Assembly (NCBI GenBank): GCA_051313645.2
Contig: JBNRSN020000003.1
Coordinates: 323,268,001-323,332,000, forward strand
Length of the DNA stretch: 64,000 nucleotides
From: Centroscyllium fabricii
Lineage: Eukaryota
Direction: 5' to 3'
Shown: positions 845-47,724 of the stretch, piece by piece
How positions within the stretch are numbered: position 1 is the stretch's first letter
Layout of the letters: each line of letters starts with the position of its first letter
Notes under the pieces: generated by a model
Told to the model about the DNA's origin: nothing
The model's input: only the letters and a program-made list of their open reading frames with translations
Database searches by the model: none
Program-made: the position numbers and the translations under genes

Positions 845-1122
845 TGTGGTAACCATATATATGTATATAAATTACCACTGTAATATTGGTGCCAATATTG
901 CCACTGTACATAGTAAGATGTTGCGACACTGTCGTGGGGCCAGGTCAGCCACACCTCTAACTCCTCCCCCAGGTGAGGCCCTTTATAGGTGAGGACTGAC
1001 CGGACCCGACCATTCTGTACCTGTTGTTCGTTCGGAGTATAGCTCCTATGTAAGTCAATAAAAGCCTGTAGTTAAGGTCACTACTCGTCTTTGGCTTTAT
1101 TGAGTTAATTGACGATACGTCC
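845..1122 (+). mobile_element. Solo LTR inserted into the protease region of the Gypsy element
   Basis: Starts TGTGGTAACC, has AATAAAAGCC, ends GACGATACGTCC. 5-bp TSD GCGGC at 840-844 and 1123-1127. Clearly similar to the LTRs at 33718-33994 and 38201-38477. Confidence 0.92.
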
Positions 1123-2137
1123 GCGGCTAGGGTGAATAAAACTCTCAGTACTCTCGCAATCGATTAAACACTTCATCGGGTGTCCATTTACCTTAACGTC
1201 CATCATAGACTTCGATCGTGGATGCGGTCTGGACTGGTCGACCGTGATTGAGGCGATCGTAGAACCATGGGCGGCTGCTGAAACTATATCAAATTCCGGG
1301 ACCACATGTAGGGCCGTGGAGTCGGTATCTGGTATGGGTATCCCCTTACATACGTTGCTGAAATATCCCCATTTCTTGCACTTGAAACATGTGGCATCTC
1401 TCGCGGGACATCGGTGTCTGGAGTGCTAGAGCTGGCCGCAGAAGTAGCATCTTGGTCCGCGGGACATCGCTGCAGTGGTGGGGCTGGGTGGAGACTCGCG
1501 TGGTGTAGGGCTGGTCCAAGGCCTGGATGGAGAGGATGGCGCCTCCTTACTCGGCACGCACGAGGCTGAGAGGGGAGCATGGCCTGACGCATAGGTCTCG
1601 GAGTTCTTCTGTCCCCCATCCAGCGATCAAGCTGTAGCCACGGCTGTCTTTAGATCCAGAGTGTCCTTTTCAAGCAACCTCTGCCTAATGTAATTTGATT
1701 GAAGGCCCGATATAAACTTATCGCGAACCGCTTCTTCCTAGTATGCGATGGCCGTCACAGCCTGGTATTTGCAGTCCTTCGCCAGGGCCTTTAGGTTCTG
1801 CAGAAAATCATCCAGCGATTCCTCCGGTAGTTGCCTGCGGGTAGCCAAGAGATGCTGGCATACACCTCGTTAACAGACTTCAGGTATTGGGTCTTAAGAG
1901 TCGCGAGCGCATCGTCATATGTAGTAGCGTCCGAAATTAGCGAGAAAATCCAATGACTTACTAGGTTAGTCAATAGGCCCAGTTTGTTGACCCCATCATC
2001 GAGTGATGCAATGAAATGTTCGAAACACCGGAGCCAATGTGCGAATTTCTTCGGTGCGCCTGCCGAATGTGGATCACAGTCCAGACGCTCTAGCTTCAGG
2101 AATCTGTCCAACCCTAGGAGTTCTAAGCTACTAAAAT

Positions 2138-2428
2138 TGATGTGCCTTTAATAGAGACTGAGACAGGTAGTTATAATTCAAACAGTTGGCTTTTAATAGC
2201 TTAGAACTGGACTGCACTGGAGCCACATGTTGCCTTACAGAAATGGCTTCTCAGACTGAACAAGGAGGCGGAGCCAGGGGCGAGGTCACAGATCTGGACA
2301 ATCAATGGCACAACAGAGTGAACACAGCATTCCTGGCCAACCAAGAAAACAGCAGGGTTGCAATAGATTACAATAGGGAACTATACACAGGTAGAATGAG
2401 GTATACTTATAAGGCTTATTTCACCACA
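2138..2428 (-). repeat. 5' LTR of the Gypsy element
   Basis: Minus strand TGTGGTG...GGCACATCA with ATTAAAAGCC poly(A)-like signal; gag begins about 27 nt downstream. Confidence 0.85.
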
Positions 2429-18700: not shown

Positions 18701-18829
18701 ACACTTCATTCCTGCTTTTTCCTTTTTTACAACTTTACCTTTATCTCCATACATTCTTTCTCTTCCTGACACACTCTGTCTTTTAATTCCCCCATTGTTA
18801 CCTATGTCCATTACCTTCTCCAGTGTCAT
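15781..18829 (-). pseudogene. CR1 ORF2 (APE endonuclease + reverse transcriptase), frameshifted, with an internal deletion and an insertion
   Basis: YLNARSIRNK, AITETWL, VYRPP, SDHN, KSPGPDG, NYRPVSLTS, LDFQKAFDKVPH and FADDTK across several ORF pieces. Confidence 0.95.
17250..17393 (+). mobile_element. Short 3' end of a different CR1 family, inserted antisense in ORF2
   Basis: FKRMIDRYM end of ORF2, GGCCCAAGGGCCTGT hairpin region and (TTCTATG)n tail; splits the GPDGLH/PRVL motif. Confidence 0.8.
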
Positions 18830-18869
18830 TTTATTTATTTGCTCTCTCGAAACCTCCCCCCTTCTAATT

Positions 18870-19823: not shown

Positions 19824-20130
19824 TCTATATATTTAATATAAGTTATTATTATTAGTTACGCAAAAAAAACCTTTGCCCTGATATAGCTGAATATCACACT
19901 ATTTAAGAGCACTTTCCACTTATGAGGTATAAAGTGTAAAATGGAAGCAAGAGTACTTACCAACCAGCTCATTACCAACCTCCTTCGGATTGCCCCGCCG
20001 CTCCTCCTCGGTGGCGTTGGCCGAACCTAAGATTTGGGACAGAAGCAAAACAGAGAAGCACCCCCTCACCTCCCACTTGCCCGAACTCTCCACTTACCAA
20101 ACTCTCGCTAGCACTCTATGCCCTCCGCAC

Positions 20131-21062: not shown

Positions 21063-23413
21063 AATACTCAACACAGTTATTGAAATTACTGAGGTGTACC
21101 TGACCTGAGTGTATTCAACACAGTTACTGAAATGACTGAGTTGTACCTGACCTGTGAATACTCAACACAGTTACTGAAATTACTGAGATATACCTGACCT
21201 GAGAACACTCAACACAGTTACTGAAATTACTGAGGTATACCTGACCTCAGAGTACTCAACACAGTTACTGAAATTACTGAGATGTGCCTGCCTGAGAGTA
21301 ATCAACACAGTTACTGAAAATTACTGAGGTGTACCTGACCTGAGAATACACAACACAGTTACTGAAATTACTGAGGTGTACCTGACCTGAGAATACTCAA
21401 CACAGTTACTGAATTTACTGAGGTGTACCTGACCCGATAATACGCAACACAGTTACTGAAATTACTGAGGTGTACCTGACCCGAGATTATTCAACACAGT
21501 TACTGGAAATTACTGAGATGTGCCTGACCCGAGAATACTCAACACAGATACCAAAATTACTGAGGTGTATTTGACCTGAAAATACTCAACACAGTTACTG
21601 AAATTACTGAGGTGTACCTGACCTGAGAGTACTCAACACAGTTACTGAAAATACTGAGTTGTACCTGACCTGAGAATACTCAACACAGTTACTGAAATTA
21701 CTGAGATATACCTGACCTGAGAATACTCAAGACAGTTACTGAAATTACTGAGGTGCACCCGACCTGAGAATAATCAACAGTTACTGAAATTACTGAGGTG
21801 TACCTGACCTGAGAGTACTCAACACATTTACTGAAATTACTGAGGTTAGCCTGACCTGAGAATACTCAACACAGTTACTGAAATTACTGAGGTGTGCATG
21901 ACCTGAGAATACTCAACAGTTACTGAAATTACTGATGTGTACCTGACCTGAAAATACTCAACACAGTTACTGAAATTACTGACGTGTACCTGACCTGAGA
22001 GTACTCAACACAGTTACTGAAATTACTGAGGTGTACCTGACCTGAAAATACTCAACACAGTTACTGAAATTACTGAGGTGTACCTGACCTGAGAATACTC
22101 AACACAATTACTGATATTAATGTGGTGTACCTGACCTGAAAATACTCAACACAGTTACTGAAATTACTGTGGTGTACTTGACCTGAGAATACTCAACACA
22201 GTTACTGAAATTACTGAGATATACCTAACCTGAGAATACTCAAGACAGTTACTGAAATTACTGAGGTGTACCTGACCTGAGAGTACTCAACACAGTTACT
22301 GAAATTACTGAGGTTAGCCTGACCTGAGAATACTCAACACAGTTACTGAAATTACTGAGGTGTGCCTGCACTGAGAATACTCAACACAGTTACTGATATT
22401 AATGTGGTGTACCTGACCTGAAAATACTCAACACAGTTACTGAAATTACTGAGGTGTACCTGACCTGAAAATACTCAACAGAGTTACTGAAATTACTGAC
22501 GTGTACCTGACCTGAGAGTACTCAACACAGTTACTGATATTAATGTGGTGTACCTGACCTGAAAATACTCAACACAGTTACTGAAATTACTGAGGTGTAC
22601 CTGACCTGAAAATACTCAACACAGTTACTGAAATTACTGAGATATACCTGACCTGAGAATACTCAAGACAGTTACTGAAATTACTGAGTTGTACCTGACC
22701 TGAGAGTACTCAACACAGTTACTGAAATTACTGAGGTTAGCCTGACCTGAGAATACTCAACACAGTTACTGAAATTACTGAGGTGTGCCTGACCTGAGAA
22801 TACTCAACACATTTACTGAAATTACTGAGTGTGCATGACCTGAGAATACACAACACAGTTACTGAAATTACTGAGGTGTACTTGACCTGAGAATACTCAA
22901 CACAGTTACTGAAATTACTGAGGTGTACCTGACCTGATAATAATCAACAGTTACTGAAATTACTGAGGTGTACTTGACCTGAGAGTACTCAACACAGTTA
23001 CTGAGATTACTGAGGATAGCCTGTCCTGAGAATACTCAACACCGTGACTGATATTACTGAGGTGTGCATCATGTGAGAATACTCAACACAGTTACTGAAA
23101 TTACTGAGGTGTGCCTGACCTGATAATACTCAACACAGTTACTAAAATTGCTGAGGTGTATGTAATGATATTGAGACTTCCGGCAGGAAGTCGGATGAAC
23201 TCTGCTTATGAACTTCCAGTGACATCACTTCCTGTACATGTCACTTCCTGTGTAGTAGTATAAATTCTGCTGCTGTTCAGTCTGAGATAATGCTTCCCTA
23301 TGTAAATATGTTAAAACTCTCAACTCTGTAAATAGCTGATTAAAGCTTTGCTTAAAGTATTTGATGTGTAGGTCGCTTTTGTCACATCAATTTAATCAGC
23401 TACTACGCTCAAA

Positions 23414-24556: not shown

Positions 24557-27513
24557 AACTGCACACTTATCCATCAGACCAGGCAATTGCAATGGCCCAA
24601 TCTTCACTTAATACTAGAATCTCGGGCTTCTGTATTGTGGACTTAACCCTTAATGGGCGCCTGTATCCCTCCACCCGTCTCTCAGTCCTTAACGATCTAT
24701 GTAGTGATATCATTCTGGGACTAGATTTCCAAAGACAACATAACAAGCTGACCATTGAGTTCGGGGGTTCTAAACCCGGACTCGTTATCTCTAAATCATC
24801 ATCCAAAACGCCATTTTGTGCACTGTCAGCAGCCTCTCTGGACGAACCGTCGTTATTTACCAGCGTTACGCCTCAGTGCAAGCCGATAATAACTAAGTCT
24901 CGGCGCTTTAGTCAGGAGGATCGATCCTTCATTGATACAGAAATCTCTCGACTCCTGGCCGAGGACATCATTGAACCTTGTTCATCGCCTTGGCGGGCTC
25001 AGATCGTCATTGTTAAAAACTCCTTGAAATCTCAGAAGAAACGCCTATGTATCGATTACTCTCAGACCGTTAATCAATATACGGATTTGGATGCTTACCC
25101 ACTGCCACGTATCGATGACATGGTGAATAAACTGGCTGAATATTCACTATTTTCGACTTATGATCTGAAGAGTGCTTACCATCAGGTACCCCTAGGGGCC
25201 TCAGATAAGAAATATACAGCCTTTGAGGCTAACGGACAATTGTATCAATTTTGCCGTCTCCCATTCGGAGTCACCAACGGAGTAGCCGTCTTTCAACGAG
25301 CCATGGATGGCTTAGTGAAGCAAGAAGACTTGAGGGACACTTTCCCTTATCTCGACAATATTACGGTTGCTGGCCATGACCAACAAGAACATGACGACAA
25401 CCTTCGAAGATTTCGGGATGCACTTTATCGTCGCAATCTGATTTTAAATGAAACCAAATCCGTGGAATCACAGCCCACCATTAACATTCTCGGCTACTGT
25501 GTGGGTAATGGCATCATCAAGCCTGATCCTGAAAGACTTCGGCCCCTCCAGGAGCTTCCTCCACCTAACAGTCCTGCTTCCTTGCGTCGGGCCCTCGGCC
25601 TATTTGCCTACTATGCGAAGTGGATTCCTGATTTTTCTGACAAAATTCAACCTTTGTTGAATGCCAGGACATTTCCATTAGGAACAACGGCCATTACAGC
25701 CTCTACTACCCTTAAACAACATTTGAAGACAGCAACCCTCCACTCCATCGATGAGAACCTCCCATTCGTGGTCGAATGTGACGCTTCAGAGGTGGCGATC
25801 TCAGCTACCCTCAATCAGGAAGGTCGCCCTGTAGCTTTCATGTCTAGGACCCTATAGGGTGCCGAAGTGCACTATCCACCGGTGGAAAAAGAAGCCACGG
25901 CCATCATTGAGGCTGTACGAAAATGGAACCATTTTTTAGCTCGCCGACACTTCACGCTGATAACGGACCAGCGATCAGTAGCGTTCATGCTGGACAACCG
26001 CAAAAGAACCAAAGTCAAGAATAATAAAATACAACTGTGGAGGATGGAATTGGCCTCTTTTGGCTATACTATTCACTATCGCCCTGGTAAAGATAATGTG
26101 GCCCCGGACACTCTTACTCGAGCATTCTGCGCTGCTACATCACCCTCCACTCTCGCAGATATTCATGATGGATTATGTCATCCTGGTGTGACACGTATGT
26201 TACATTTTGTACGGTCACGAAATCTCCCATTCTCAACCGGAGACATCAAGTAAATGTGTTCAGAATGCAGAACCTGTGCTGAGCTAAAACCCCACTTTTT
26301 CCGGCCCCCGGCTGGTGTACTTATACATGCGACACAACCAATGCAATGACTGAGCATTGATTTTAAGGGCCCTGTACCCTCGTCCACTAGGAACATATAT
26401 CTGCTTACGATGGTCGACGAATATTCACGTTTCCCATTCGCCTTCCCCTGCCCTAATATGCTGTCTTCCACAGTAATCAATTGTCTCGAGCAGGTATTCG
26501 CGCTCTGTGGCATGCCAGCTTACATCCATTCAGATCGGGGTCCATCTTTCATGTCCACTGAACTTAAGGACTACCTCTCGGAAAGAGGTATCGCGACAAG
26601 CAAAACAACACCATACCACCCCATCGGTAACGGCCAGGTGGAAAGATATAATGGCATCATATGGAACTCTGTACGCCTTGCCCTGAAATCCCAGGGTCTA
26701 CCCAACCAGTAATGGGAGATGGTGTTACCAGATGCATTGCACTCCATACGGTCCTTGCTTTCCACAGCCACGAACACGACGCCTCATGAACGGTTCTTCA
26801 GTTTCCAGCGTCGCTCATCGTATGGAGCATCACTCCCTTCATGGCTGACCACTCCAGGGCCCGTATTGCTCAGAAGATATGTCCGAACTTCCAAGCATGA
26901 CCCTCTTGTGGACGAGGTAGAACTAACTGAGGTCAACCCCAACTACGCTCACATACGACACCCTGACGGACGAGAGTCTACAGTATCGTTGCGGGACCTG
27001 GCACCCTGCCCATCAGGACCTAGAGGGTCATCTAGGGATAATACCCTACCGGGAAACTCCAGAGAACCACTGGGTACCACTCTTCAGGACCCCGATCAGG
27101 CACCAATTACCTTTGAGCCGGTAGGATCACGCACTCGGAGCTTCGACTCACCTGGTACCTCATTCCAGGATGCTGATCAATCCTCAACTGACACGGAGCC
27201 CATAGGGGCTCGTACGCGGAGTCATGATCCTCCCTGTGCCCCACGCCAAAATGCCAATGGGCCATCGACAAGCTTGGTACCTTCTCCCGACCAAGGGCAG
27301 ATCAACTCTGAACCTATTGGATCTCGCACACGGAGCCATGATTTCCACAACCCATCGCCGGGTAATCCAGGCCATGTTGGATTTGACCCAGATTCGAAGA
27401 CCCGCAAACGGCCCAGTAACTCAGACATTGACCATCAAAACACTCTACCAACCCAAGAGAACGAACTTAAACGTATGCGGCTCCTCCTCGTACATCTACT
27501 TCAGAATATTTGA
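24553..27513 (+). pseudogene. pol: Gypsy Pol (RT, RNase H, integrase) with four in-frame stops
   Basis: IDYSQTVN, YLDNI, VECDASE, HHCC, VDEYSR, HSDRG and NGQVER; stops near 25855, 26251, 26347 and 26710. Confidence 0.93.
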
Positions 27514-30500
27514 TTTCTGCCTCATAATCTTCTAGGAGGGAAGAATGTAATGATATTGAGACTTCCGGCAGGAAGTCGGATGAACTCTGCTTATGAACTT
27601 CCAGTGACATCACTTCCTGTACATGTCACTTCCTGTGTAGTAGTATAAATTCTGCTGCTGTTCAGTCTGAGATAATGCTTCCCTATGTAAATATGTTAAA
27701 ACTCTCAACTCTGTAAATAGCTGATTAAAGCTTTGCTTAAAGTATTTGATGTGTAAGTCGCTTTTGTCACATCAGTGTACCTGACCTGAGAATACTCAAC
27801 AGTTACGGAAATTACTGAGGTGTACCTGAGCTGAGAATACTCAACACAGTTCCTGAAATTGCTGAGGTGAGCCTGACCTGAGAATACTCAACACAATTAC
27901 TGAAATTGCTGAGGTGTACCTGACCTGAGAATACTCAACACAGTTATGGAAATTATTGAGTTGTACCTCACCTGAGAGTGCTCAACACATTTACTGAAAT
28001 TACTGAGGTGTGCCTGACCTGAGAATACTCAACACAGTTACTGTAATTACTGAGGTGTACCTGACCTGAGAATAATCAACAGTTACTGAAATTACTGAGG
28101 TGTACCTGACCTGAGAGTACTCAACACAGTTACTGAGATTACTGAGGATAGCCTGACCTGAGAATACTCAACACCATTACTGATATTACTGAGGTGTGCC
28201 TGACCTGAGAGTACTCAACATAGTTACTGAAATTACTGAGGCGTGCCTGACCTGAGAATACTCAACAGTTACGGAAATTACTGAGGTTTACCTGACCTGA
28301 GAATAATCAGCACAGTTACTGAAATTACTGAGGTGTACCTGACCTGAGAATACTCAACATAGATACTGAAATTACTGAGGTGTGCATGACCTGAGAATAC
28401 TCAACACAGTTACTGAAATTACTGAGGTGTGCCTGACCTGAGAATACTCAACACAATTACTGAAATTACTGAGGTGTGCCTGACCTGAGAATACTCAACA
28501 CAGTTACTGTAATTACTGAGGTGTACCTGACCTGAGTGTACTCAACACAGTTACTGAAATTACTGAGTTGTACCTGACCTGACAATACTCAACACAATTA
28601 CTGAAATTACTGAGGTGTGCATGAGCTGAGAATACTCAACACAGTTACTGAAATTACTGAGGTGTACTTGACCTGAGAATACTCAACACAGTTACTGAAA
28701 TTACTGAGATGTACCTGACCTGAGAATAATCAACAGTTACTTAAATTACTGAGGTGTACCTCACCTGAGAGTACTCAACACAGTTACTGAGATTACTGAG
28801 GAGAGCCTGACCTGAGAATACTCAACACCATTACTGAAATTACTGAGGTGTACCTGACCTGAGTGTACTCAACACAGTTACTAAAATTGCTGAGGTGTAC
28901 CTGGCCTGAGAATACTCAACAGTTGCGGAAATTACTGAGGTGTACCTGAGGTGAGAATACTCAACACAGTTACTGAAATTGCTGAGGTGATCCTGACCTG
29001 AGAATACTCAACACAATTACTGAAATTGCTGAGGTGTACCTGACCTGAGAATACTCAACAGAGTTACAGAAATTACTGAGGTGTACCTGACCTGAGAATA
29101 CTCAACACAGTTACTGAAGTTACTGAGGTGTACCTGACCTGAGAGTATTCAACACTGTTACTGAAATTACTGAGTTATACCTGACCTGAGAATACTCAAC
29201 ACAGTTACTGAAATTACTGAGATATACCTGACCTGAGAACACTCAACACAGTTACTGAAATTACTGAGGTGTACCTGACCTGATAATAATCAACAGTTAC
29301 TGAAATTACTGAGGTGTACCTGACCTGAGAGTACTCAACACAGTTACTGAAATTACTGCGGTATGCATGACCTGAGAATACTCAACACAGTTACTGAAAT
29401 TACTGAGATGTGCCTGACCCGAGAATACTCAATACAGATACCGAAATTACTGAGGTGTACCTGACCTGAGAGTACTCAACACAGTTACTGAAATTACTGA
29501 GGTGTACTTGACCTGAATATACTCAACACAGTTACTGAAATTACTGAGATATACCTGACCTGAGAGTACTCAACATAGTTAATGAAATTACTGAGGTGTG
29601 CATGACCTGAGAATATTCAACACAGTTACTGAAATTATTGAGGTGTGCCTGACCTGAGAATAATTAGCACAGTTACTGAAATTACTGAGTTGTTCCCGAT
29701 CTGAGAATAATCAACACAATTATTGAAATTACTGAGGTGTGCATGACCTGAGAATACTCAACACAATTACTGAAATTACTGAGGTGTGCATGACCTGAGA
29801 ATACTCACCACAGTTACTGAAATTACTGAGGTGTACCTGACCTGAGAATAATCAACACAATTACTGAAATTACTGAGGTGTACTTGACCTGAAAATACTC
29901 AAATTACTGAAATTACTGAAGTGTACCTGACCTGAGAGTACGCAACACAGTTACTGAAATTACTGAGATGTGCCTGACCCAAGAATACTCAACACAGATA
30001 CTGAAATTACTGAGTTGTACTTGACCTGAAAATACCCAACAGTTACTGAAATTACTGAAGTGTACCTGACCTGAGAGTACTCAACACAGTTACTGAAATT
30101 ACTGAAGTGTACCTGACCTGAGAATACTCAACACAGTTATTTACTGAGTTGTACCTGACCTGAGAATACTCAACACAGTTACTGAAATTACTGAGATATA
30201 CCTGACCTGAGAATACTCAAGACAGTTACTGAAATAAATGAGGTGTACCTGACCTGAGAATAATCAACAGTTACTGAAATTACTGAGGTGTACCTGACCA
30301 GAGAGTACTCAACACAGTTACTGAAATTACTGAGTTGTTCCTGATCTGAGAATACTCAACACAATTACTGAAATTACTGAGGTGTAACTGACCCGAGAAT
30401 ACTCAACACAATTTACTGAAATTACTGAGGTGTACCTGACCTGAGAGTACTCAACAGAGTTACTGAAATTACTGAGGTGTGCCTGACCTGAGAATACTCA

Positions 30501-33023: not shown

Positions 33024-34014
33024 CTTCACTGGCTGTAAGACACTTTGGGACATCCTGAGGTGGTGAAAGGTGCTATACAAATGCAAGACTTTCTTTCTTT
33101 CTTCCTTTGACCTGAAAATTCTCAACACTGACACTGACAAAGAAATTCAGCAGGAGGTTAGCAGTGGTGCTACCGGGTATTGCCCGCTCTTCTGTGCGCG
33201 CAGATCACAACGTCATCTCCAGGCGCAGTGCCCCGGTAGCGCTTCGGGAGAAAAATTACCCCTGCGCGCCCCGCAGCAGCGGCAGGCGATGTTACTGACT
33301 GCTGCAGGGGTCGCGAACAGCGCGGCCGGCCGCTCACGGGGCGCCAATTGAAGGCACGGTGGCTGGCCGACAGGGAAAAGAATTGCCAATTTAAAAATTA
33401 AATTTCTGAGCACCGGACATGGGCTGGAGCACTCCCGCACCCTGGTGCTCCAGCCGATGCCCAAAAAAATATGTAGAGCTTGCAGCGGGGTGCCCCGCCC
33501 TTTAATTGAGGGAAGACCCCCCCTGCAATGCGGCAGTGGGTCTGCTGAGCAAATCGCCCCAGATCAGGACATTTCCTGCCTCTTGCGCTCCAAGCGGCAA
33601 GTGGAGCGCTTGATTTAATGCTCCACTTCCCTCTTGGAGCAAAAAATGGGAATTTAACTAATATCTGAATGGTTAGCGCCTGGCGCCAAGTTTTCAACCA
33701 TTTTTGACTAAGTGCCCTGACGTATCGTCAATTTGTCTTAATAAAAGACTAGACGAGTAGTTACCATAACTATAGGCTTTTATTAACTTACTTTGGAGCT
33801 ACCCTCCGAACGAACATCAGAACAGAATGAGGGAGCCCCGGTCAGTCCTCACCTATAAAGGCCTCACCTGGGGGAGGAGTTAGAGGTGTGGCTGACCTGG
33901 CTCCACGACAGTGTTACAAAGCGGTGTATCATACAAAGCCAATGTTGGCGACAATATTACAGTGGTAATCGTATATACAATATGGGTTACCACATTCACC
34001 CCTTCTTGAAAATT

Positions 34015-36300
34015 TTAAGTCCGGCGGGGTGAATGGACAGAGCAGTTAATTATGAGCTTGTCCGGCGGTCGTGTCAGCCTGGAGGACTGCCGGGGCTCCG
34101 ATAAAGGTTCGCCGTGTTCCGTACTGCTCGAGTCCGGTGGTGGTGACAGTGGCTCTGGTGCCGTGATTTCGGATGCTGGTGGTCTCAATTGGTCCGAGCC
34201 ATCGGAATGGTGGTCTTGGGCTGGCCACGGCTGGGGCTCTGGAAACCTCGGAGGCCATCGTAGATGTAGGGGGTGTTCTAGATACTGTGGCTGGGCGGGC
34301 TGCTGCCCGACCAGGGGCTCTGCTGTGGTGCTCCCGGCAGACGCCAGGTCCCTGATGGATACGGTGTCCTCGCGCCCATCCGGGAACTGCACGAAGGCAT
34401 ATTGCGGATTCGCATGCAGGAGCTGCACCTTGTCCACCAGGGGGTCGGTCTTGTGGCCACGGACGTGTCTCCTAAGGAAGACCGGCCCCAGTGTCGTGAG
34501 CCATGGAGGAAGAGCTGTCCCCGAAGTCGACTTCCTGGGGAAGGAAAAAATCAAGTCATGAGGGGTGGTGTTAGTGGCTGTGCACAGGAGAGAGCGTATT
34601 GAATGCAGCGCGTCTGGGAGGACTGCCTGCCAATGGGCCACTGGAAGGCCTCTGGATTTCAGAGCCAGGGTGACCGCCTTCCAGATGATCCCAGTCTCCC
34701 TTTCTACCTGGCCGTTCCCCCAGGGGTTATAACTGGTCGTTCTGCTCATGGCAACCCCTTTCTGGAGCAGAAACTGACGCAGTTCATCGCTCATGAATGA
34801 TGACCCTCGGTCGCTATGGATGTAGCTGGGGAGACCGAAAATGGCGAACTGCGTGGTGAAGTGTTTTATCATCGTTGCGCTCGTCATATCTGCGCAGGGG
34901 AAGGCGAAGGGGAAGCGGGAGAACTCATCTACGACCGTGAGGAAGTATGAGTTGCGGTCGGTGGTGGGGAGGGGGCCATTGAAGTCCACGCTTAGACGTT
35001 CAAAGGGGCGGGTGGCCTTAATGAGGTGCACCGTGTCTGGCCGGAAAAATTGGGGTTTGCACTCGGCGCAAACAGGGCACTCTCGGGTCATAGCCTTGAT
35101 CTCCGTGATGGAGTAGGCGAGTCTGGTGACACCCGGGTGGCAAAGGCGGTCGTGGAGGTCCTTCAGCCGGTCTAGCTGGGCACTGGCGCACGTTCCCCTG
35201 GACAGTGCGTCCGGGGGTTCATTGAGTTTACCTGGTCGGTAAAGAATGTCATACTCGTAAGTCGAGTGTTCGATCCGCCACCGCAGGATCTTATCATTCT
35301 TGATCTTACCCTTCTGTTTATTATTAAACATAAACGCCACCGACCGTTGGTCGGTGAGAAGGGTAAAACGCTTACCGGCCAGGTAATGACGCCAGTAGCG
35401 CACGGCCTCCACGATGGGTTGGGCCTCCTTTTCCACTGCAGAGTGGCGAGCTTCGGGTCCCTGTAGGGTGCGGGAGAAAAACGCTACGGGCCTGCCTGCC
35501 TGATTCAGGGTGGCAGCAAGGGCAATGTCCGAAGCGTCGCTCTCCACCTGGAAGGGAATGGATTCATCAACAGCGAGCATGGTCGCCTTGATGATGTCTT
35601 CCTTTATCCGGGCGAATGCCGTTTGGGCTTCTACCGAGAGGGGGAAGACGGCAGCCTTGAGGAGTGGTCTAGCCTTATCTGCGAACTGTGGGACCCATTG
35701 TGCGTAGTAGGAGAAAAATCCTAGGCATCTCCTCAAGGCTTTGGGGTTGTGAGGTAGGGGCAGTTCTTGTAGGGGGCGCATACGCTGTGGGTCGGGGACG
35801 AGGACCCCGTCCTCCACCACGTATCCGAGGATGGCGAGCCGGTCTGTATTAAAGACACATTTGTCCTTGTTATACGTAAGGTCCAGCTTATCTGCCGTGT
35901 CAAGGAATTTGGCCAGATTGGCATCGTGGTCCTGCTGGTCGTGGCCGCAGATGGTCACGTTGTCCAGGTAAGGGAAGGTTGCCCGCAAATCGTTCTGGTC
36001 AACCATGTGGTCCATCTCCCATTGGAACACTGACACTCCGTTGGTCATGCCGAAGGGGACCCGGAGGAAGTGGTAGAGCCGACCGTTCGCCTCGAAGGCG
36101 GTGTACGGGCGGTCGGCTTTCCAGATCGGGAGTTGGTGATACGCCGACTTAAGGTCGATCGTGGAGAACACCTTATATTGGCCGATCTGATTGACCATGT
36201 CCGAGATGCGGGGGAGGGGGTAGGCGTCGAGCCCGGTGTAGCGGTTGATAGTCTGGCTGTAATGGATAACCAGCCGCTGTTTCTCGCCAGACTTCACCAC
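34015..36300 (-). CDS. pol: Gypsy Pol RT-RNase H-integrase, open for 761 aa but frameshifted from the upstream protease
   Basis: (D/H)YSQTINRY, YLDNV, VESDASD, HHCC, VDEFSR, HSDRG and NGQVER. Confidence 0.93.
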   Translation of the reverse strand: MVKSGEKQRLVIHYSQTINRYTGLDAYPLPRISDMVNQIGQYKVFSTIDLKSAYHQLPIWKADRPYTAFEANGRLYHFLRVPFGMTNGVSVFQWEMDHMVDQNDLRATFPYLDNVTICGHDQQDHDANLAKFLDTADKLDLTYNKDKCVFNTDRLAILGYVVEDGVLVPDPQRMRPLQELPLPHNPKALRRCLGFFSYYAQWVPQFADKARPLLKAAVFPLSVEAQTAFARIKEDIIKATMLAVDESIPFQVESDASDIALAATLNQAGRPVAFFSRTLQGPEARHSAVEKEAQPIVEAVRYWRHYLAGKRFTLLTDQRSVAFMFNNKQKGKIKNDKILRWRIEHSTYEYDILYRPGKLNEPPDALSRGTCASAQLDRLKDLHDRLCHPGVTRLAYSITEIKAMTRECPVCAECKPQFFRPDTVHLIKATRPFERLSVDFNGPLPTTDRNSYFLTVVDEFSRFPFAFPCADMTSATMIKHFTTQFAIFGLPSYIHSDRGSSFMSDELRQFLLQKGVAMSRTTSYNPWGNGQVERETGIIWKAVTLALKSRGLPVAHWQAVLPDALHSIRSLLCTATNTTPHDLIFSFPRKSTSGTALPPWLTTLGPVFLRRHVRGHKTDPLVDKVQLLHANPQYAFVQFPDGREDTVSIRDLASAGSTTAEPLVGQQPAQPQYLEHPLHLRWPPRFPEPQPWPAQDHHSDGSDQLRPPASEITAPEPLSPPPDSSSTEHGEPLSEPRQSSRLTRPPDKLIINCSVHSPRRT

Positions 36301-36334
36301 TACTACCTGGGCCCGCCAGGGGCTGGTGCTGGCT

Positions 36335-38175
36335 TCAATTATCCCCTTCCTTCAGCATACGCCCGACCTCCGACCTGATAAACGTGCGATCCCCCACACT
36401 GTACCGCCGACTCTTTGTAGCAATAGGTTTGCACTTGGGGTCGAGGTTGGCGAACAGTGAGGGGGGGTCGATTTTCAGGGTGGAGAGGCCGCAGGCCGGG
36501 CTCCGCTTTGGGAAGGGACTGTCCCGGCTACTGACGGTGAGGGGGGGCAAGGTCCCGCCGAACTCCATTGTCACGCTCTTGAGGTGGCACTGGAAATCCA
36601 GACCTAGTAAGGCTGGGGCACACAACTGCTTGAGGGTGTACAATTTAAAATTACGGTACACGCAACCCTTGACCGTGAGCGTGACGGAGCAGTAGCCGGT
36701 GACCACCGCGGTGTGGGACTGTGAAGCCAGGGAGACTTGGTAGTTCGTGGGCAGGATCTGCAGTCCATAGCGCTGCGCTGTATCGGGGTGTATAAAACTC
36801 TCCGTGCTTCCAGTGTCAAACAGACAATTGGTAATATGGCCGTCAATTTTAATCGGCATGATTGAGTCAGAAAGGTTGTGTGGCCTAGCCTGGTCCACTT
36901 TAGGTATGGCTGAGGCCGAAGTGTGCCTTTGTGTGTGGGGGCCCCCTGCTGGTTGGGGCTGTACACAAAATGGCGGCGCCCCTGGCTCGCACATGGTGGG
37001 GCCCTGGAGACAAAATGGCGGCGCCGAGGGGTCGCACATGGCGGGCCGCTGGAGACAAGATGGCGGCGCCGAGGGGTCGCACATGGCGGGCCGCTGGAGA
37101 CAAGATGGCGGCGCCGGGGGGTCGCACATGGTGGGCCGCTGGAGACGAGATGGCAGCGCCCGTGGTTTGCACGTGGCGGGCTGCGGTGACTGGGTTGGCG
37201 GCGCCCGTGATTCGCATGCAGTGGGCCGCGCTGGGTCTGCCGCTGGCGTTGGGGGGTCGCGCTTGGCCGGCCTTTGCCGCATCAGGGTGGGAGATGGGGG
37301 CGCTTTCCTTCTACCCCCGGACCGTCGCTGGATCGCGCTGCTATTGCAGCTTACCTGAGGTCTGGCGGAGCTTTCACAGGCTGCGCTGTTGTACCTGGAG
37401 TTGGGCGCTGCTGGTGCTGATCTGCAGGTCTTCGCATAGTGTCCCTTTTTGGAGCACCTCTCACAGGTCGCGGTCCTTGCTGGGCAACTCGCTCGTGGGT
37501 GCAGTTCCTGGCCGCAGAAATAGCACCGTTTGTCCTTTGCGGCTGTCGCAGCCATCGTGGGGGTCTCGACCCGTTGTGGTGCTGCCCAGGCCTGGGCCCG
37601 TTGTGGCGCGGCCCACATGTCGTAGCCCTGCGGGTTTGTGCCGCTGTACGCCTGCAGCTTATTGCGTGCTCCTTCAACGGAGTTAGCTATGGAGATCGCC
37701 TCCTCAAGGGTCAAAGAGTCCTTTTCGAGCAGCCGCTGGCGGGCTTCCACGCACCTCAGGCCAGTTACATACACATCACGGATGAGGAGATTCGCCTCCT
37801 CTTCTGCTGTCCGGGCTTGGCAGCCACAGACCCGTACCAGGGCCTGGAGCGCTTGCTCAAATTGTTCATTAGTCTCACCCGGTAGTTATGGTCTGGTCAC
37901 GAGCACATGTCTGGCGTAGACCGAATGGACCAGGCGCTCGTAGCATTTCCTCAGCTTTTCCACTGCCCCGGGAAGGTTTTGGCATCTCGGATGAGGGAGA
38001 ATACTCGGCTGGATATCCTAGACTGGAGAACCTGCAATTTGTTCTCGTCGGTTGTAGCCTTGGCGGCGTCCATATAGGCCTCCAGGAGACCGAACCAGTG
38101 TTCGAACGTGGTGGCGGCGGCTGGGTCCTGTGGACTGATGTCCAGCTTCTCTGGCTTTACCGCACCGCTCTCCAT
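36335..38175 (-). pseudogene. gag: Gypsy Gag-protease, frameshifted, with an internal 45-bp tandem repeat
   Basis: CYFCG..H..CP, CERCSKKGHYAKTC and CLFDTGST; 15-aa repeat MCDPSAPPSCLQRPA. Confidence 0.9.
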
Positions 38176-39003
38176 TTCAAAATTTTTAAGTTAAGAAAAT
38201 TGACGTATCGTCAATTTGTCATAATAAAAGACTAGACGAGTAGTTACCGTAACTATAGGCTTTTATTAACTTACTTTGGAGCTACCCTCCGAACGAACAT
38301 CAGAACAGAATGAGGGAGCCCCGGTCAGTCCTCACCTATAAAGGCCTCACCTGGGGGAGGAGTTAGAGGTGTGGCTGACCTGGCTCCACGAGAGTGTTAC
38401 AAAGCGGTGTATCATACAAAGCCAATGTTGGCGACAATATTACAGTGGTAATCGTATATACAATATGGGTTACCACATGCCCCAAATGGCCCTTTCGAGT
38501 AATATTCTCTCCCTGCAGCACAAAAAAATCTTGCCGTCACAGTGCTTAAAATCTGGCGTTTTTTAAATATTGCAGTTACTAATGGATTTCTAATTCTATT
38601 GCAGTGCGGGTTTCACGGCTGCTAAGTTCAAGAAATAATGACAGTTAGAATAGGCTTTCTTTGATAGCCATCCTCACACATCATTTTACTCAAACCTTGT
38701 CAGACATGTCTGATGTGTTTGTCTCCGCATCCGCTCACCAGATACATTTCAGGACACATATGTAAAGGGAGCACTGACAATCCTGTTAGTGGGTAGATTA
38801 TTATGATTAATTGCATAGAGCAGTGTGCGGAGAGACATGGCAATGGATGGGTTGATACTTGTGTGGGAAACTGCTTTGGAGAGGGGCGGACAAGGGACAC
38901 CCACTCATCCTGGGTAAGCCAGTACATTTTTTTTTAACCTGAACTTTGATTTGAAATATTTCTCCTTTAACTCTTTTTATCATGCGTTTGCAAAATAGAG
39001 ATA

Positions 39004-40635: not shown

Positions 40636-40735
40636 GTTCTGATCCTGTTCCTGATCCTGTTCCTGCTCCTACACCTACTCCTACTCCCACTCCTACTCCT
40701 GATCCCGCTCCTGCTCCTGATTCTGATCTTGTACC
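40636..40735 (+). repeat. Degenerate hexamer microsatellite (TCCTGC/TCCTAC/TCCTGA)n; also at about 40260-40320 and 47550-47572
   Basis: Read directly; it produces the spurious PAPTPT and RSRS ORFs. Confidence 0.8.
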
Positions 40736-40911
40736 TGTGATATCTTGGGACACAACATATATATACAACTGCAAAACATGGCTTTTGGTAAGAACTGTAC
40801 TGCCCATGTGCTTTATTATTACATATATCAGTAGTCACCAGGTGGTGCTATTACACTTCTCACTCCTTATTGAAGAAGTTAATCACAGCAAATAATCATT
40901 GTACATGACTT

Positions 40912-41283
40912 GGGACGACACGGTGGCGCAGTGGTTAGCACTGCTGCCTCGCAATAAGGAGCTCCTGGGTTCAAATCCTGCTTGGCCCGGGACCTCTCTG
41001 CGTGGAGTTCGCATGGTCTCCCCGTGTTCGTGTGGTTTTCCTCTGGGTACTCCGGTTTCCTCCCATCACCCAAAGACATGCAGGTTAGGTGAATTGGAGA
41101 TACTAAAAAAAAAAAAAAATTGCCCATGAGTATGTGTGAGATATAGTTCTTAGATTTGGGGGTGTCGGGGCATATGGGGAGAGGGTAGGAGAGGGGTGCT
41201 GGGTTTGGATGATCAGCCACGATCTCATCAAAAATGGCGGAGCAGGCTCGAAGGGCCGAATGGCCTACTTCTGTGTTTCTGTG
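40912..41283 (+). mobile_element. HE1-like V-SINE variant
   Basis: tRNA head, V domain and CR1 tail; sister copy at 46758-47137. Confidence 0.85.
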
Positions 41284-42469
41284 CATGGTCTGCACAACTC
41301 TTGGTATACATTTCTGAAATGGAACCCATTTTATGTTTCCAAATTCTACTATAGAATTCTGTAACACAAACAAAAGATATGAACTTATTTTCCATCTTTA
41401 CAAATTAAACTTTACCCCTGGTTTTCTGTTTCGAAGAGGTTGTCTTCTTTCTTGAACAGAACTTTCAGATCTTGTTGCAGGACTTTGACTGATTCTAGGC
41501 TGAGCCTGCAGAGAATTTTTCTCCAAGGGCTGACCGTAATCTACATTTGGACTGTTTGTCTGCCTGACTTTCTCTTGGACTTGTTTCTGGTACGTCTGAT
41601 GTAGCATTTGCTACTGGTACTCTACTTGACTCATCAGAATAAATTGAATCGTCCCAGCTTTCAACACCTTGCACATCTGTAGGTAAGATATGATCAATGT
41701 GAACACACCCAACCTTTCCATGATCAAACATCTTGACCAAATATGCATGAGGGCCACATATCTTCATTAGTCTTCCTGGTAGCCACTTTAACCATTTATG
41801 GTGATGGTTCTTTACTCTAAATTTCTGGTTCAACTTCACACTTCTCTCTCTAACTCTACCTTTATCATGACTCTTTTTCTGCCTTGATTGTTTCTCTTCT
41901 ACTGACTGTGCCAAGTTTGGCTTTAACAACGAGAACCTGGTTCGTGGCTGTCATTTGAGAAACATCTCTGCTGATTTTCTACTATAAGTGGTATGAGGAG
42001 TATTCCGATAGGTAATCAGAAAATTTGCCAGTTTGTGGTCCAATGACAACTGACGTTTCTTTGGATTTGAATCCAACATCTGCTTGATGAGGGCACGTTT
42101 GACAATTTGTACTGTGCGCTCTGCTGCACCATTTGAAGCAGGGTGGTATGGTGGAACTTTGGTACGTTTCACACCGTTTTTGCTCATGAACTGTGTGAAC
42201 TCTTCTGAACAATATTGCAGCCCATTATCAGACACAATTTCTTCTGGGAGGCCATATGAAGAAAGCAATCTTTGCAAATTGTTTAGTGTTTTGCTTGTTG
42301 TTATTATCCGCATCGGAAACACCTCTACCCAGTTTGAGTGACTATCTATCACTATGAACAATTGCTGTCCTTCTAGCTCAGCAAAATCTGCATGTAACAT
42401 TTGTCACACTCTGGGAGGCCATTTCCTTGGCTGTAATGGTACTGATGGTGGTTCACCGATTGACATATT

Positions 42470-43233
42470 GGGCCAGAAATCCCGATGAGCGCAGGAGGTT
42501 TTGGAGCCGGGTATTAGCGCATCCGAGCTCCGAATTGCAGGGAGCAGCCGTTTCCAGCTGCTACCTGCAATTCCGAAGGCGTCCAGCGGGGGGTCGCGAG
42601 CTGCTGCGAGCTGGATTGCGTTCGCCTACGTACCAGGAGGCGCGCAGTGCACTTCCGATTTTTTTGCGAATTTTGTTATCGGGGTAAGTATTGAAGATTT
42701 TACACTTAAAAATATCAGACGTAAGCACCCATTTTTAGCAGGTAAGTCTTTATTTTATAGAATTTAATTATTGTTTTTCCAGGTTTTTAATTTTTTTTAA
42801 CTTTAAAGACAGGTAAGCATTCTTTTACGCCAGTTAAAGACTTTAATTTTTTTTCTAAATTTTTATTTTTTCTTTAAAATAGGCAATTTATGTTAGTTAG
42901 AGTATTGTTAAAAAATTTGGTGTTTATTAAATTTTATTTTTGTGTTTAGATGTGTTTTTGAAGCTCTTCCTTTTAAAAACTTACACAAATTTCTCCGTGT
43001 AAGTTATGAATGGAGGATTGCTTCCATTGATTGGCTCCCTGCAGATCACGTGGTCACATGCAATATCTTGCGCTAATTACGCCGTTGAGTTGCACCAGCA
43101 GGTCGCTTAGAGCTTTCAGAAGCTGTACAACTCGGGAGTTCACATCGTAGAATTGCAAAACAGCAAAAGTGCAGGGTAAATGTACCTTGGAGCCTTGCAC
43201 TTGCACAAAGGCTCCAAGGCTAATTTCTGGGCC
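42470..43233. mobile_element. Harbinger-type MITE in the integrase HHCC region
   Basis: TIR GGGCCAGAAAT / ATTTCTGGGCC; 3-bp TSD ATT. Confidence 0.82.
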
Positions 43234-44560
43234 ATTAACTATGTACTCTATCTCTTTATCTAAACCTGGCCACCATAAGTAACTGCGTGCAAAACTCTTG
43301 GTCATGCACAATCCCAGGGGCCGGTGATGAAGATCTCCTAACAATTTGGACCTGGCAGCTCATCAACGTATGAGATATAGAACATTTCTTCCCTGTTGGG
43401 TGTAACTTGTGATGGGGACCTGGCAACCTGGACATAGCATCAGCAATACTGTGATCAGCTGCTCGTCTATGCTCAATGTTATATGTATACGCTGACAAAA
43501 TCAAAGCCCATCTCTGCATTCGGGCTGCAGCCAAGTTTGGCACTGGGAATTTTGGATGGAGGATTGCTGTCAGGGGCTTATGGTCAGTAACTGCGGCAAA
43601 CTTACGACCAAACAAGTATTTGTGAAACTCCTCGACCCCAAATTTTAATGACAAAGCTTCCCTTTCGATCTGCGCATAATTCCACTCACTCCCCCTGAGA
43701 GTGCTTGAAGCAAAAACAGTTGGTCCCTCCTCCCCACTGTCTAGTTCATGAGAGATCACTGCCCCAACTCCGTATGGAGAGGCGTCACATGCTAACTTGA
43801 TCACCTCAGATACATCATAGTGAACTAACATGGTAATCTCTACTAACTGGCTTTTACACTCTTTGAATGCTGTGTCACATTCTTTTGACCACTTCCAAGG
43901 GACCTGTTTTCTCAACAGCTCATTCAGTGGATGTAACAATGTAGCCAAGTTTAGGAGGAACTTTCTGTAATAATTCAATAGACCCAAAAATGATGGAAGT
44001 TCAGAGACATTCTTGGGAGTGGGTGCATTTCTGATTGCATCCAGCTTTCCCTTGGTTGGATGTAAAGTATTTTATCTACTCACACTTGTGAGCTGTCACT
44101 TGTACTCCGTGCTTCTCCAGCACTTCATTCAATATCTCATCATGGATTTGTCTGTTTGGTGCTGAAAAGAGTATGTCATCCAAATAACACACTACCCCTT
44201 CAATCCCTTGCAAAATTTTGTTCATCACCCCTTGGAATATGTCAGGGACTGAAGGCACTCCAAATGGTAGCCGATTGAACTGATATAGGCCTCGGTGAGT
44301 AGTTATAGTCAAGCATGACTTGGACTCTTCATCGAACTCAAGTTGTAGGTAGGCGTTTATTAGATCTAACTTTGAAAAGATCTGGCCACCTGTGAGCTTG
44401 TGAACCAATCTTCCATATTTGGCAACATATTGGGTAGATTACACGCTAGAACCTGGTTTACGGTTACTTTATAATCACCACACAACCTTAACTTACCATC
44501 TGACTTAGGTACAAAAACAATGGGTGTAGCCCAATTACTCCGATCTACCTTAGAGATAAT

Positions 44561-45475
44561 GGAGGGGATATTCCTGGTGGTACGGGAACCTGGCGGGGAT
44601 TGGTTGGGGCGGGTTCCTGTCCCCCCCGCCCAAGGACCTGGGATGCCCGCACGATTTTGCCTCAAGTGGCCAATCAAATCCCCGTCGGTCAGCGCCGTTT
44701 TGAATACACACTTTTGAGTCAGGAAGCGTGGGACTTCCTTTCACATTGTGAATGACCGGCCGGCTTTTGATTGACAGGCCTGAAGAGTTTCAGTAGCCAG
44801 AAACCACAAAGCCTGACTGACAGTTCTGAAGTGGTTCCTTTCTTTCAATGTTGATAGAGGCATTGTGATGTCACAATCCAATGCAAATATTGAAACCACA
44901 AATCTAACAGTTCAAGTGGACTGACTGTTTGTTTGTAGTTTCACTGGAATGTAAACAGAAACTGATCCCCTGGGTGATTGACAACTTGCTTCTCAGACAC
45001 AGCTCGCAGCACGATGTCTGTGAATGGCTGGCATTTAAAGGTAAGTGATTTCTATTTTTTGGGGCTCTGAAATTTCCCACCCTTGGGTGCCAGCTGTACC
45101 TCCAGCATGGTGGATGCTAGCAAGCTACTGTGTGGTTACTGTGCCCATGCCTTGAAGGTGGCAGTCACCCAGCCGATTGGGTGCCCGCCAGCTTTCAACG
45201 GCAGGGTTCCCACCAGGCAGGTTTTGGGTGGGAAGAGGGTCAAAATAGCTGAGAGCCCTTAAAATAGGATTACCCAGGCAATTAAGGGCCCTCAACGAGC
45301 TCATTGAGCATCCCCGCCGGTGGCCGGCGGGAAACATTCGGGGCGGGAAAACCCGCCCAAGGAAACTGGCAAATCGGCGGGGATCCAGCGGGGTGGGTTC
45401 CTGCCCACCAGATTTGCAATTTTACACCCTGCCCTGCCGGAAACCCACACTCAGGGACCTCGGAAAATCCCCCCC
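44561..45475. mobile_element. Harbinger-type MITE in RT
   Basis: TIR GGAGGGGATATTCC / GGAAAATCCCCCCC; TSD AAT; removing it rejoins LETENI|ISKVDRSNW. Confidence 0.85.
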
Positions 45476-46757
45476 AATGTTCTCAGTTTCTAGTCTTTTG
45501 AGTTCTTGCTCAACTTTCTCCTTGAGTGCGTATGGTATGGGACGTGGCTTGCAGTAAACTGGTCTTGTGTCCTTCTGCACTCTGACACTCGCCTTGAATT
45601 GTTGGATCGGACTGCCTGTTTCGCTGAACACCTTCAGATACTGCTTGACGACATCATCCTTTGATGCAAATTTCGCTTACACATGAAAAATCTCATTCCA
45701 ACCCAGCTTCAGTGATCCTAACCAATTTCTATCTATCAAGGCAGGCTTGTCTCCTGCCACTACTATGTGAGACAAGCGATCCTTGTATTTCACTGGTATG
45801 GTGACACTTCCTACTACAGGGATTTGCTCTCTTGAGTAGCCTCGCAGCTCTACCTTTGATTTCTCTAGTCGATAATCACACAACTTGTCGCGATATAGCG
45901 ATTCCAGTACTATGCTCATGGAAGTGTCGATTTCCGTGGGTATCCTGGTTCCTGCGACATTTACTTGGATGACAATACCTCGCGAATCGCTGTTCGATAC
46001 CTTCGTGTTCCTGATGATGTAAATCTCCAGAAACTCCTCGTCCTGCTGCTGCTCTATAACGGTACGTGGTGTCTGGCGATTCCTACTTCTAGCATTGCCA
46101 GTCGATTTACTCTTCTGTCGGCACGCTGTCGCAAGATGCCCAGTTTTCTTGGAGTTGAAACACTCTGCCTTCGCATATGGACAGCTTTGAGCGATGTGTT
46201 GTCTCAGGCACCAATAGCACGACTTCAGTGCACTGTTACCTTGGCCAGTTGCTGAGTCCTTAGGGCCCAACTGCCTTTTAGTTTTAGCCTGCAGTCGATT
46301 CACCTCGGTTGTCTGACGACTGGAAATGGCGCAAAACTCTCGGGAATATCGTTCGGCCATATCCATCAACATAGCTCTCTGACAAACTAAGTCAAAAGTC
46401 AAGTTAGGGGTTGACAACAATTTACTTCTGATACATTCATTTTTCAACCCACAAACAAAGCGGTCACGCAAAGCTCGGTCCTGAAAGTTTCCGAAATGAC
46501 AGTGAATGGATAGTTTTTTAAAGCTACAATGTACACACTGATACCCTCGTCATTTAATTGATTGCGTGTTCTAAAACGATAACTTTCAGCAATTTCCAGG
46601 GGCTCAGGACTGTAGTGCAGAATCTCCTTCAGTGGCATGTCCTTCGGCTTGGTGGGAACAAGCACATTTTTCAGGGTTTCGTACATCTCGGGGCCTGCTT
46701 CAGTCAAACAAAAGCCCATTTCCTTTCCAAAACTGCCCAGTTATGGTTTACATCATC

Positions 46758-47137
46758 AGGGATGACACGGTGGCGCAGTGGTTAGCATTGCTGCCTCGCA
46801 ATAAGGAGCTCCTGGGTTCTAATCCTGCTTGGCCCGGGACCTCTCTGCGTGGAGTTTGCATGTTCTCCCCGTGTTCATGTGGGTTTCCTCTGGGTACTCC
46901 GGTTTCCTCCCACCACCCAAAGACATGCAGGTTAGGTGAATTGGAGATACTAAAAAAAAAATTGCCCATGAGTATGTGTGTGAGATATAGTTCTTAGAGT
47001 TGGGGGTGTCGGGGATATGGGGAGAGGGTAGGAGGGGGGGGCTGGGTTTGGATGATCAGCCATGATCTCATCAAAATGGTGGAGCAGGCTCGAAGGGCCA
47101 AATGGCCTACTCCTGCTCCTATCTTCTGTGTTTCTGT
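46758..47137 (+). mobile_element. HE1-like V-SINE variant inserted in gag
   Basis: Near-identical to 40912-41283. Confidence 0.85.
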
Positions 47138-47411
47138 GGACTTTGACAATACTATTTACGGTGAAAAACATTTCTAGCTGCTCCACATATGCTCCGAAAG
47201 TCTCTCGGTCACGATCAAACTCACCCAAGCACTTTATTATTCCCCTAGACCTGGCCTTCTGGATTCTGGCAACGTCGACAGTTCCACCACGCGTGCTTGA
47301 AGTTACCTCAGATTCTTAAGTTTTTTCTGCAAAACAAAGATTCTCTAACAGTCCCTCTGTCGGTTGGCAGGATTATCTGCCAACAAAAATTTCAGCCAGG
47401 GAATTGACAAA

Positions 47412-47427
47412 CCCATCCTCGTCACCA
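47412..47427 (-). promoter_or_regulatory. tRNA primer-binding site, probably tRNA-Ser(GCU)
   Basis: TGGTGACGAGGATGGG 4 nt after the 5' LTR, complementary with one mismatch to the vertebrate tRNA-Ser(GCU) 3' end CCCAUCCUCGUCGCCA (recalled, not searched). Confidence 0.75.
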
Positions 47428-47724
47428 ATTCTGTGACATCTTGGAACACAGCATATATATACAACTGCACAACATGACAAGAACTGTTCTGCCCATGTAC
47501 TTTATTATTATATATATCAGCAGTCAGCAGGTGGTGATATTACAGTGCTGTACCTGCTCCTGCTCCTGCTCCGCATTGTCCAGTTTGGTATAAACGAGCC
47601 TAAAACAGGCGATAGGCCCCTCAGGTACATATGTAAGGGGCCTGCTTTAAGCGGTTCCAGGGACATCTGAAAAATGGTTGGACCCAATATCGGGTCGAAT
47701 GGCTTTCAAGCCTCATTGGAATAA

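Follow-up and report, generated by a model that had tools for sequence, protein, structure and literature searches.

A conserved, covarying LTR/leader helix as putative self-priming site of an animal Ty3/Gypsy lineage outside the Tf1/sushi group

Among retrotransposons, Tf1 is the case in which self-priming of reverse transcription has been demonstrated; predictions of it extend to related chromoviruses and to two lineages in plants. According to the accessible text of the respective sources, the first 11 bases of Tf1 pair with the priming site and are removed by RNase H (PMC7175516), the site being surrounded by a three-duplex fold (PMC10085805), and self-priming is recorded for Tf1/sushi, Tcn1 and the copia element TAR (PMC6317226). 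Tf1 and Tf2 of Schizosaccharomyces pombe, Tj1 and the Tf1/sushi elements have in common with the lineage described here that they are Ty3/Gypsy elements without a tRNA site (PMC7175516, PMC10085805 and PMC4600332, in the parts available), and the Tf1/sushi group, as far as described there, also shares with it a site adjoining the 5′ LTR that is complementary to an LTR segment over a core of ~11 pairs. Self-priming is predicted also outside Tf1/sushi, namely in plant Tcn1 (Gypsy) and TAR/Houba/Osr-1 (Copia), where 10 nt or more directly behind the 5′ LTR can likewise pair with an LTR segment; these elements differ from ours in host and lineage, and the accessible part of the source mentions neither an overlap with the poly(A) signal nor an internal position of the primer (PMC6317226). 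In the literature searched, including the available portions of PMC5341516, PMC11042837 and PMC6934838, no description of self-priming in animal Gypsy elements other than chromoviruses was found; GyDB, Repbase and Butler et al. 2001 lay outside this search and may hold an earlier note.

The element under study lies on the minus strand of a 64,000-nt stretch of the Centroscyllium fabricii genome (assembly of 7.2 Gb), hereafter the window. It has TG...CA LTRs, a target-site duplication, a polypurine tract and the domain order PR-RT-RH-IN (Table 1), and by its sequence it is a young Ty3/Gypsy element. Its best match among solved structures is Ty3 Gag-Pol (E 8.9e-54), and its named protein relatives come from sharks, rays and cnidarians. 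Gmr1-like Gypsy elements are defined by an integrase upstream of the reverse transcriptase (RT); this order was not found here, the focal integrase coming after RNase H. Within gag, a short tandem repeat with a period of 45 nt (window 36987-37160) varies among copies. As the LTR pair, the 5-bp target-site duplication and the polypurine tract fix the boundary of the element, the leader segment that we call arm B starts 1 nt past the terminal CA of the 5′ LTR; with the gag ATG 11 nt later, this places arm B at the primer-binding position.

Table 1. Features of the focal element and of related elements in the window (window coordinates).
Feature	Position	Strand	Remarks
5′ LTR	38201..38477	-	277 nt, TG...CA
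3′ LTR	33718..33994	-	277 nt; 3 differences vs 5′ LTR
Target-site duplication, left copy, 5 bp (GGGCA)	38478..38482	-	
Target-site duplication, right copy, 5 bp (GGGCA)	33713..33717	-	
Polypurine tract, before 3′ LTR	33995..34007	-	
Arm A, candidate self-primer TAAGTTAATAAAA	38261..38273 (minus-strand 38273-38261)	-	AATAAA hexamer 38267-38262 inside; GCC next
Arm B, putative primer-binding site TTTTCTTAACTTA	38187..38199 (minus-strand 38199-38187)	-	C at 38195, most copies A
Spacer, 1 nt, LTR end to primer-binding site	38200	-	A in 33/35 elements
U5-terminal hairpin, 6-bp core	38200..38214	-	ends at spacer base; 9-bp version 38197-38217
Predicted small hairpin, 4 bp, on the 5′ side of arm A	38278..38290	-	by eye in several relatives
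TATA-like box, predicted	38335..38342	-	81 nt before arm A 3′ end
Initiator-like motif	38307..38313	-	predicted start 38311; 31 nt after TATA-like box
Gag-protease region	36335..38175	-	frame break near 37950; arm B ends 11 nt before the ATG
RT-RNase H-integrase	34015..36351	-	no chromodomain match; frame break at 5′ end (near 36340)
LTR/leader helix, second window family, 12/12	23333..23402	+	LTRs 23161-23389, 27546-27774
LTR/leader helix, third window family, 17/18, one G.U	2119..2208	-	
Solo LTR, sister subfamily, 82% identical	845..1122	+	5′ LTR copies elsewhere with compensated helix

A sequence-only reading of the window had pointed out that an LTR segment (arm A) is nearly complementary to arm B, immediately after an LTR end regarded as certain from the two LTRs. 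Both arms are indeed found at these positions and pair at 12 of 13 bases, and the boundary is backed by both LTRs together with the GGGCA duplication on each side. Among the 9,590 CA sites of the window, 8 are followed after 1 nt by a 13-nt complement (at most one mismatch) to a segment sought 30-150 nt upstream, and three of these eight are 5′ LTR ends of the lineage (38199, 23391 and 2136). When the 200 nt upstream were shuffled, the control that the same reading had proposed, 12 pairs were reached in 0 of 500 cases. The single mismatch turned out to be a peculiarity of few copies: at 38195, which that reading had proposed to check, the family consensus has A in place of C, this base being present in all 29 copies retrieved with a gag-only query that left the arms out, each of which pairs 13/13, so that the 12/13 pairing of the window copy is a minority variant. 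The A form also makes up >99.9% of the contig depth in two public runs, where an arm-to-arm joint in the contig output was taken as an inverted-repeat mapping effect. A first set of 30 copies had given 21 C and 9 A, scattered over sub-lineages, and primer-templated repair of the mismatch was considered on that account; it was discarded, since the query used for this set included site 38195 and therefore biased the split. Free folding of the window copy alone was unremarkable (z -1.71) and favoured an alternative inside the LTR, because this copy carries the mismatch. No Rfam match was obtained in 38100-38500 (E up to 1), and neither a known RNA family nor a ribozyme was found there.

To follow the helix beyond this copy we assembled 35 related elements, 22 from the source genome and 13 from metagenome contigs, chosen among helix-bearing elements and with most near-copies dropped; all have a 10-19 bp LTR/leader helix that starts 1 nt after the LTR end. 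Out of 79 metagenome loci, 24 had a gag start and at least 90 nt upstream of it, the other 55 being left out because their 5′ end was unusable or their gag start unclear. Of the 24, 22 have a helix of at least 10 pairs starting at LTR end +2, a motif having served to place one of the junctions; the two exceptions belong to a single family and are damaged. In a further family of the source genome, at least 11 LTR-leader pairs are kept by 23 of 30 copies, and the other seven are decayed or deleted. Lineage elements met by chance in other fetched regions had the helix in 19/19 cases, a count that excludes protease-region matches and one match of another lineage. A viral contig collection yielded no relative of the lineage. 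In the sister families L237, L302, L301 and L235 we also noted an inverted repeat of 11-12 bp, 50 nt apart, in the coding sequence of the protease/RT junction.

The position of the helix is fixed and its inner edge is sharp. In the 16 elements tested for this, LTR end +2 is without exception the first paired base of the helix, which comprises 10-19 Watson-Crick pairs, while at offsets -10 to +1 ten pairs were reached by one element at one offset only; the next inward pair is non-canonical in 35/35 elements. The arms themselves change and their pairing is kept: among the 35 elements there are 25 distinct arm 11-mers, and arm positions 1-11 are nevertheless Watson-Crick paired in 33-35 of them. 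When positions 5-11 are paired with the leader of the same element, 31/35 cases are perfect; when they are paired with leaders of other elements, 31 of 1,190 are. The sister subfamilies of the focal family have three different arms together with leaders that match them, and in the second window family 16 copies have a T-A pair, 13 a C-G pair and one a T.G pair. As the T-A/C-G split separates two subfamilies and goes back to one event, repeated switching in this family was rejected, and the split documents compensation, not templated copying. A conserved hairpin directly after the arm was striking by eye, yet its frequency (14/35) lies within that at other offsets (5-17), and it was dropped; with regard to the three-duplex ('pretzel') fold of Tf1, stems flanking the site were seen in part of the elements and did not exceed background.

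These data bear on the simplest alternative, namely a functionless complementarity that arose by chance in AT-rich sequence. Both arms are AT-rich, and five of the eight look-alike sites of the window are not LTR ends; against this, shuffled sequences reached the observed helix in 0/500 cases for 15 of 16 elements and in 4/500 for one, and the fixed position and covarying arms are left without a cause. The covariation and position data refute this alternative, to which we assign practically no probability. The LTR/leader helix is a real, conserved and covarying structure, and the complement proved to be conserved, selected and common to three families of the window, a perfect match being the family norm.

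A tRNA-type site, judged by TGG within 6 nt of the LTR end, was found in 0/35 elements. Three families that do have TGG-type sites reached 5-9 pairs at best and showed no helix. As a second control we searched the genome for sushi-type elements by means of the Tf2-type SH3 and integrase zinc-finger families. This group, in which Chromo and SH3_Tf2-1 were both found in 2/2 elements tested, has the known pattern of an 11-nt arm preceded at 28-30 nt by a TATA box, with the 1-nt spacer and with a poly(A) signal far downstream; the sushi-type chromoviruses with an 11-nt Tf1-like self-primer recorded in this genome are L230, L231, L233, L243, L244, L257-L259, L265, L268 and L269. In contrast to Tf1/sushi chromoviruses, which are characterised by a chromodomain at the integrase C-terminus, the focal pol and five homologs gave no Chromo or SH3_Tf2-1 match (6/6 proteins). 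RT-RNase H identity between the focal lineage and sushi-type elements of the same genome is 25-31%, and in RT-RNase H trees the focal clade and the chromodomain-bearing group form separate branches, each supported at 100/100. The trees took 40 and 25 of 59 rows, with near-copies and short rows left out, and covered five lineages from our own sequences alone, without outgroup. Judged by these sequences, the focal lineage is outside the Tf1/sushi group and without chromodomain. A sister relation of the two was not rejected (p-AU 0.155), and an independent origin of self-priming is therefore not established. With a view to the named metazoan Gypsy clades (MolGy, Cigr-1, Mag, CsRN1), three clade motifs were looked for in those supplements of PMC6238403 and PMC8556966 that could be read, and gave no match.

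The two groups differ also in the architecture of the priming region. The distance from the arm to the LTR end is 30-65 nt in the focal lineage compared with about 120-225 nt in Tf1/sushi; the focal helix has 10-19 bp, and its arm ends in TAAA, usually with a poly(A) hexamer; the predicted transcript start lies upstream of the arm. The focal helix in all probability works like Tf1 self-priming in a lineage that is not a member of the Tf1/sushi group.

The sequence-only reading had described, besides the complement, a perfect 9-bp hairpin across the LTR end and had suggested that the two stems could be alternative conformations. The hairpin exists, and compared with chance it is weak, as the window holds 7 perfect hairpins of at least 9 bp and its block shuffles 0-3 (10 shuffles). 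Its outer three pairs vary, one A being missing in 11/30 copies and in 7/29 of the copies found with the arm-free query, and a stem of at least 6 bp ending at +1 occurs in 9/35 elements, compared with 2-7 at upstream offsets. In four natural copies with perfect arms, the predicted pair probabilities of the 6-bp core (0.94-0.99) and of the long helix (0.81-0.86) are high together; in the window copy with the mismatch, and only there, the helix probability is lowered to ~0.2. With variable outer pairs, presence in 9/35 elements and a core predicted to form together with the helix, the idea of a conserved alternative conformation was not supported. Retroviruses have a short U5 stem, the U5-IR stem, that ends next to the primer-binding site, and Tf1 has an analogue of it. 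The 6-bp core resembles these in lying beside the primer-binding site and differs in that a stem of at least 6 bp is present in 9/35 elements only; it is best read as a subgroup-specific U5-terminal stem beside the primer helix.

Regarding the function of the complement, for which both poly(A) control and priming had been contemplated, priming is better supported as the main role, with poly(A) masking as a possible further one. We consider it probable that arm B is a self-priming primer-binding site of the Tf1 kind that replaces the host tRNA. This reading builds on what was observed, namely a helix that starts at a fixed place and whose two strands change together across families, at a site where no tRNA-type sequence is present. 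Arm A in the element's own LTR RNA would pair with arm B and prime minus-strand DNA instead of a host tRNA; following the Tf1 model, the RNase H of the element would cut behind arm A, where TAAAA adjoins GCC, and the 3′ end so produced would be extended across U5 by the reverse transcriptase.

What the primer would consist of depends on the transcript start, for which we looked at promoter motifs. The TATA, initiator and poly(A) patterns used are the usual consensuses. For the initiator of LTRs, TCAKTY is given in the available text of PMC3601003. A TATA-like box is present 80-88 nt before the arm 3′ end in 17/22 elements of this genome, compared with 0-5 of 22 in other 9-nt windows, and an initiator-like motif lies 48-56 nt before the arm 3′ end in 12/22, with a second peak (9) at 111-119 nt; the counts are not independent, as the 22 elements are related to one another and the TATA window was picked once the data had been seen. 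The two motifs are 30-31 nt apart and well upstream of the arm in most elements of this genome. Across the 13 metagenome elements no shared position of the TATA box emerged; L040 and L069 of this set fit the Tf1 spacing. In the focal copy, the motifs predict a start about 38 nt upstream of arm A. With this upstream start, the primer would differ from a free 5′ end of 11 nt: it would measure ~50 nt, carry a cap and be paired over no more than its final 11-19 nt, and from the motif positions it may be cut from inside R. An objection to such an internal primer is that a 5′ extension would be left, into which plus-strand synthesis could run, with no stop signal evident.

The transcript could instead start as in the classical Tf1 type, either with the A at arm position 11 or where the helix has its outer end; its first 11-19 nt would then be the primer, as Tf1 itself uses its first 11 bases (PMC7175516, as far as accessible). 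This 5′ end would suit the 11-pair core, which is near-invariant in pairing, and the sequence of arm positions 11-8, mostly A-G-Y-T: positions 11 and 10 are A and G in 30 and 32 of the 35 elements, respectively, a pair of bases similar to an initiator, as would be expected if, in the manner of Tf1, an 11-nt primer formed the 5′ end. Initiator-like words were also seen at the helix end in 5/22 elements of this genome and in L042. Nevertheless, a TATA box at the Tf1 spacing (26-34 nt before the primer), present in 11/11 sushi-type controls, is found in 5/22 lineage elements and absent from 17, while TATA and initiator motifs stand well upstream. Moreover, pairing continues beyond position 11 in 31/35 elements and tapers outward, from 35/35 at position 11 to 31, 28, 20 and 18 at positions 12-15; a taper with no sharp stop suggests that there is RNA upstream of position 11. 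We therefore hold a Tf1-like 5′ end to be rather unlikely. It shares the priming step with the explanation that we prefer, and the transcript start alone differs.

A further variant concerns the copy of arm A that is used. The primer might come from the copy in the 3′ R, of the same or of a second RNA, thereby circularising the genome and leaving the whole R for strand transfer. Conceivably, this would follow from the arm with its poly(A) signal sitting at both RNA ends, and strand transfer would not have to rely on the short overlap, about 10-30 nt, to which a cut in the 5′ copy would reduce it. Tf1, however, uses the 5′ copy (PMC7175516, available part), and the 5′ copy lies 30-65 nt from the site and can pair with it during transcription, so that we give the 3′ copy little chance. 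The likelihoods that we attach to the Tf1-like 5′ end and to the 3′ copy overlap that of self-priming itself and are not additional to it.

The arm is also remarkable for the poly(A) signal that it contains. Its 3′ end is TAAA(A) in 34/35 elements, followed by GCC or ACC in 30/35, and AATAAA or ATTAAA is found in the arm in 27/35 elements, including 22/22 of this genome. Among the metagenome elements the paired hexamer is non-canonical in 8/13, three of these eight having a canonical hexamer downstream, outside the helix; the helix thus tracks the primer position more strictly than it tracks the poly(A) signal. Given that the hexamer is part of arm A and that only the 5′ LTR is followed by arm B, the poly(A) signal at the 5′ end may also be concealed by the helix. 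The comparison of 5′ and 3′ LTR contexts by folding, as the sequence-only reading had suggested, pointed in this direction, the hexamer being predicted unpaired with a probability of 0.47-0.78 in the 3′ context and of 0.14-0.17 in the 5′ context of typical copies. In retroviral 5′ LTRs, the HIV-1 poly(A) hairpin holds an AAUAAA within R in a 5′-end helix. The focal helix is alike in this respect and differs in that the strand pairing with the signal is found beyond the LTR, in the place of the primer-binding site, which makes the helix possible at the 5′ LTR only. Masking of the 5′ poly(A) signal is, on these predictions, a plausible second role of the helix, and masking explains the hexamer in the arm equally well as priming, which speaks against priming as the sole account.

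Carried to its end, this would make the helix mainly a poly(A) switch, in which the leader hides the AAUAAA of the 5′ LTR, that of the 3′ LTR is used, and another RNA does the priming. Such a switch would account for the canonical hexamer in 27 of 35 arms and for its more open prediction in the 3′ context, and the predicted start site keeps the signal inside R. It leaves unexplained, however, the fixed start at LTR end +2 and the absent tRNA site and sits poorly with the non-canonical and displaced hexamers of the metagenome elements, and a host primer could not follow the element-specific changes of arm B; for these reasons we regard it as improbable. Returning to self-priming, its fullest version, in which this animal Gypsy lineage would self-prime independently of Tf1/sushi, with a capped, tRNA-like primer of ~50 nt released from R at TAAA/RCC and a helix that silences the 5′ poly(A) signal and so couples full-length transcription to priming, is put forward tentatively.

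Other repeats of the window were recorded along the way. Several satellite arrays with a 47-bp unit lie within 8431-31792 and contain the second LTR element (23161-27774) and LINE pieces. A LINE-like element on the minus strand (18933-19832 and 17384-18892) has a GDSL/SGNH-type esterase ORF ahead of the endonuclease ORF, the esterase match being below the curated cut-off. An older Gypsy element with a TGG-type primer site and an LTR of ~105 nt lies at about 40735-47560 on the minus strand and carries the same short repeat inserted in gag and before its 3′ LTR; at 60405-62462, also on the minus strand, a LINE interrupts a partial copy from another Gypsy family, which is young, high in copy number and equipped with a TGG-type site. 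Elsewhere, L254 is a head-to-tail array of a tRNA-primed Gypsy family with a spacing of 7,246 nt.

If self-priming holds for this lineage, it would be a second abundant animal lineage with this mode, and tRNA-free priming would be commoner than assumed; it would also explain why a primer site is absent for such elements in tRNA-based annotation. Should the primer be internal, it need not equal the 5′ end of the RNA, and the helix would offer a simple answer to how a short LTR avoids its own 5′ poly(A) signal.
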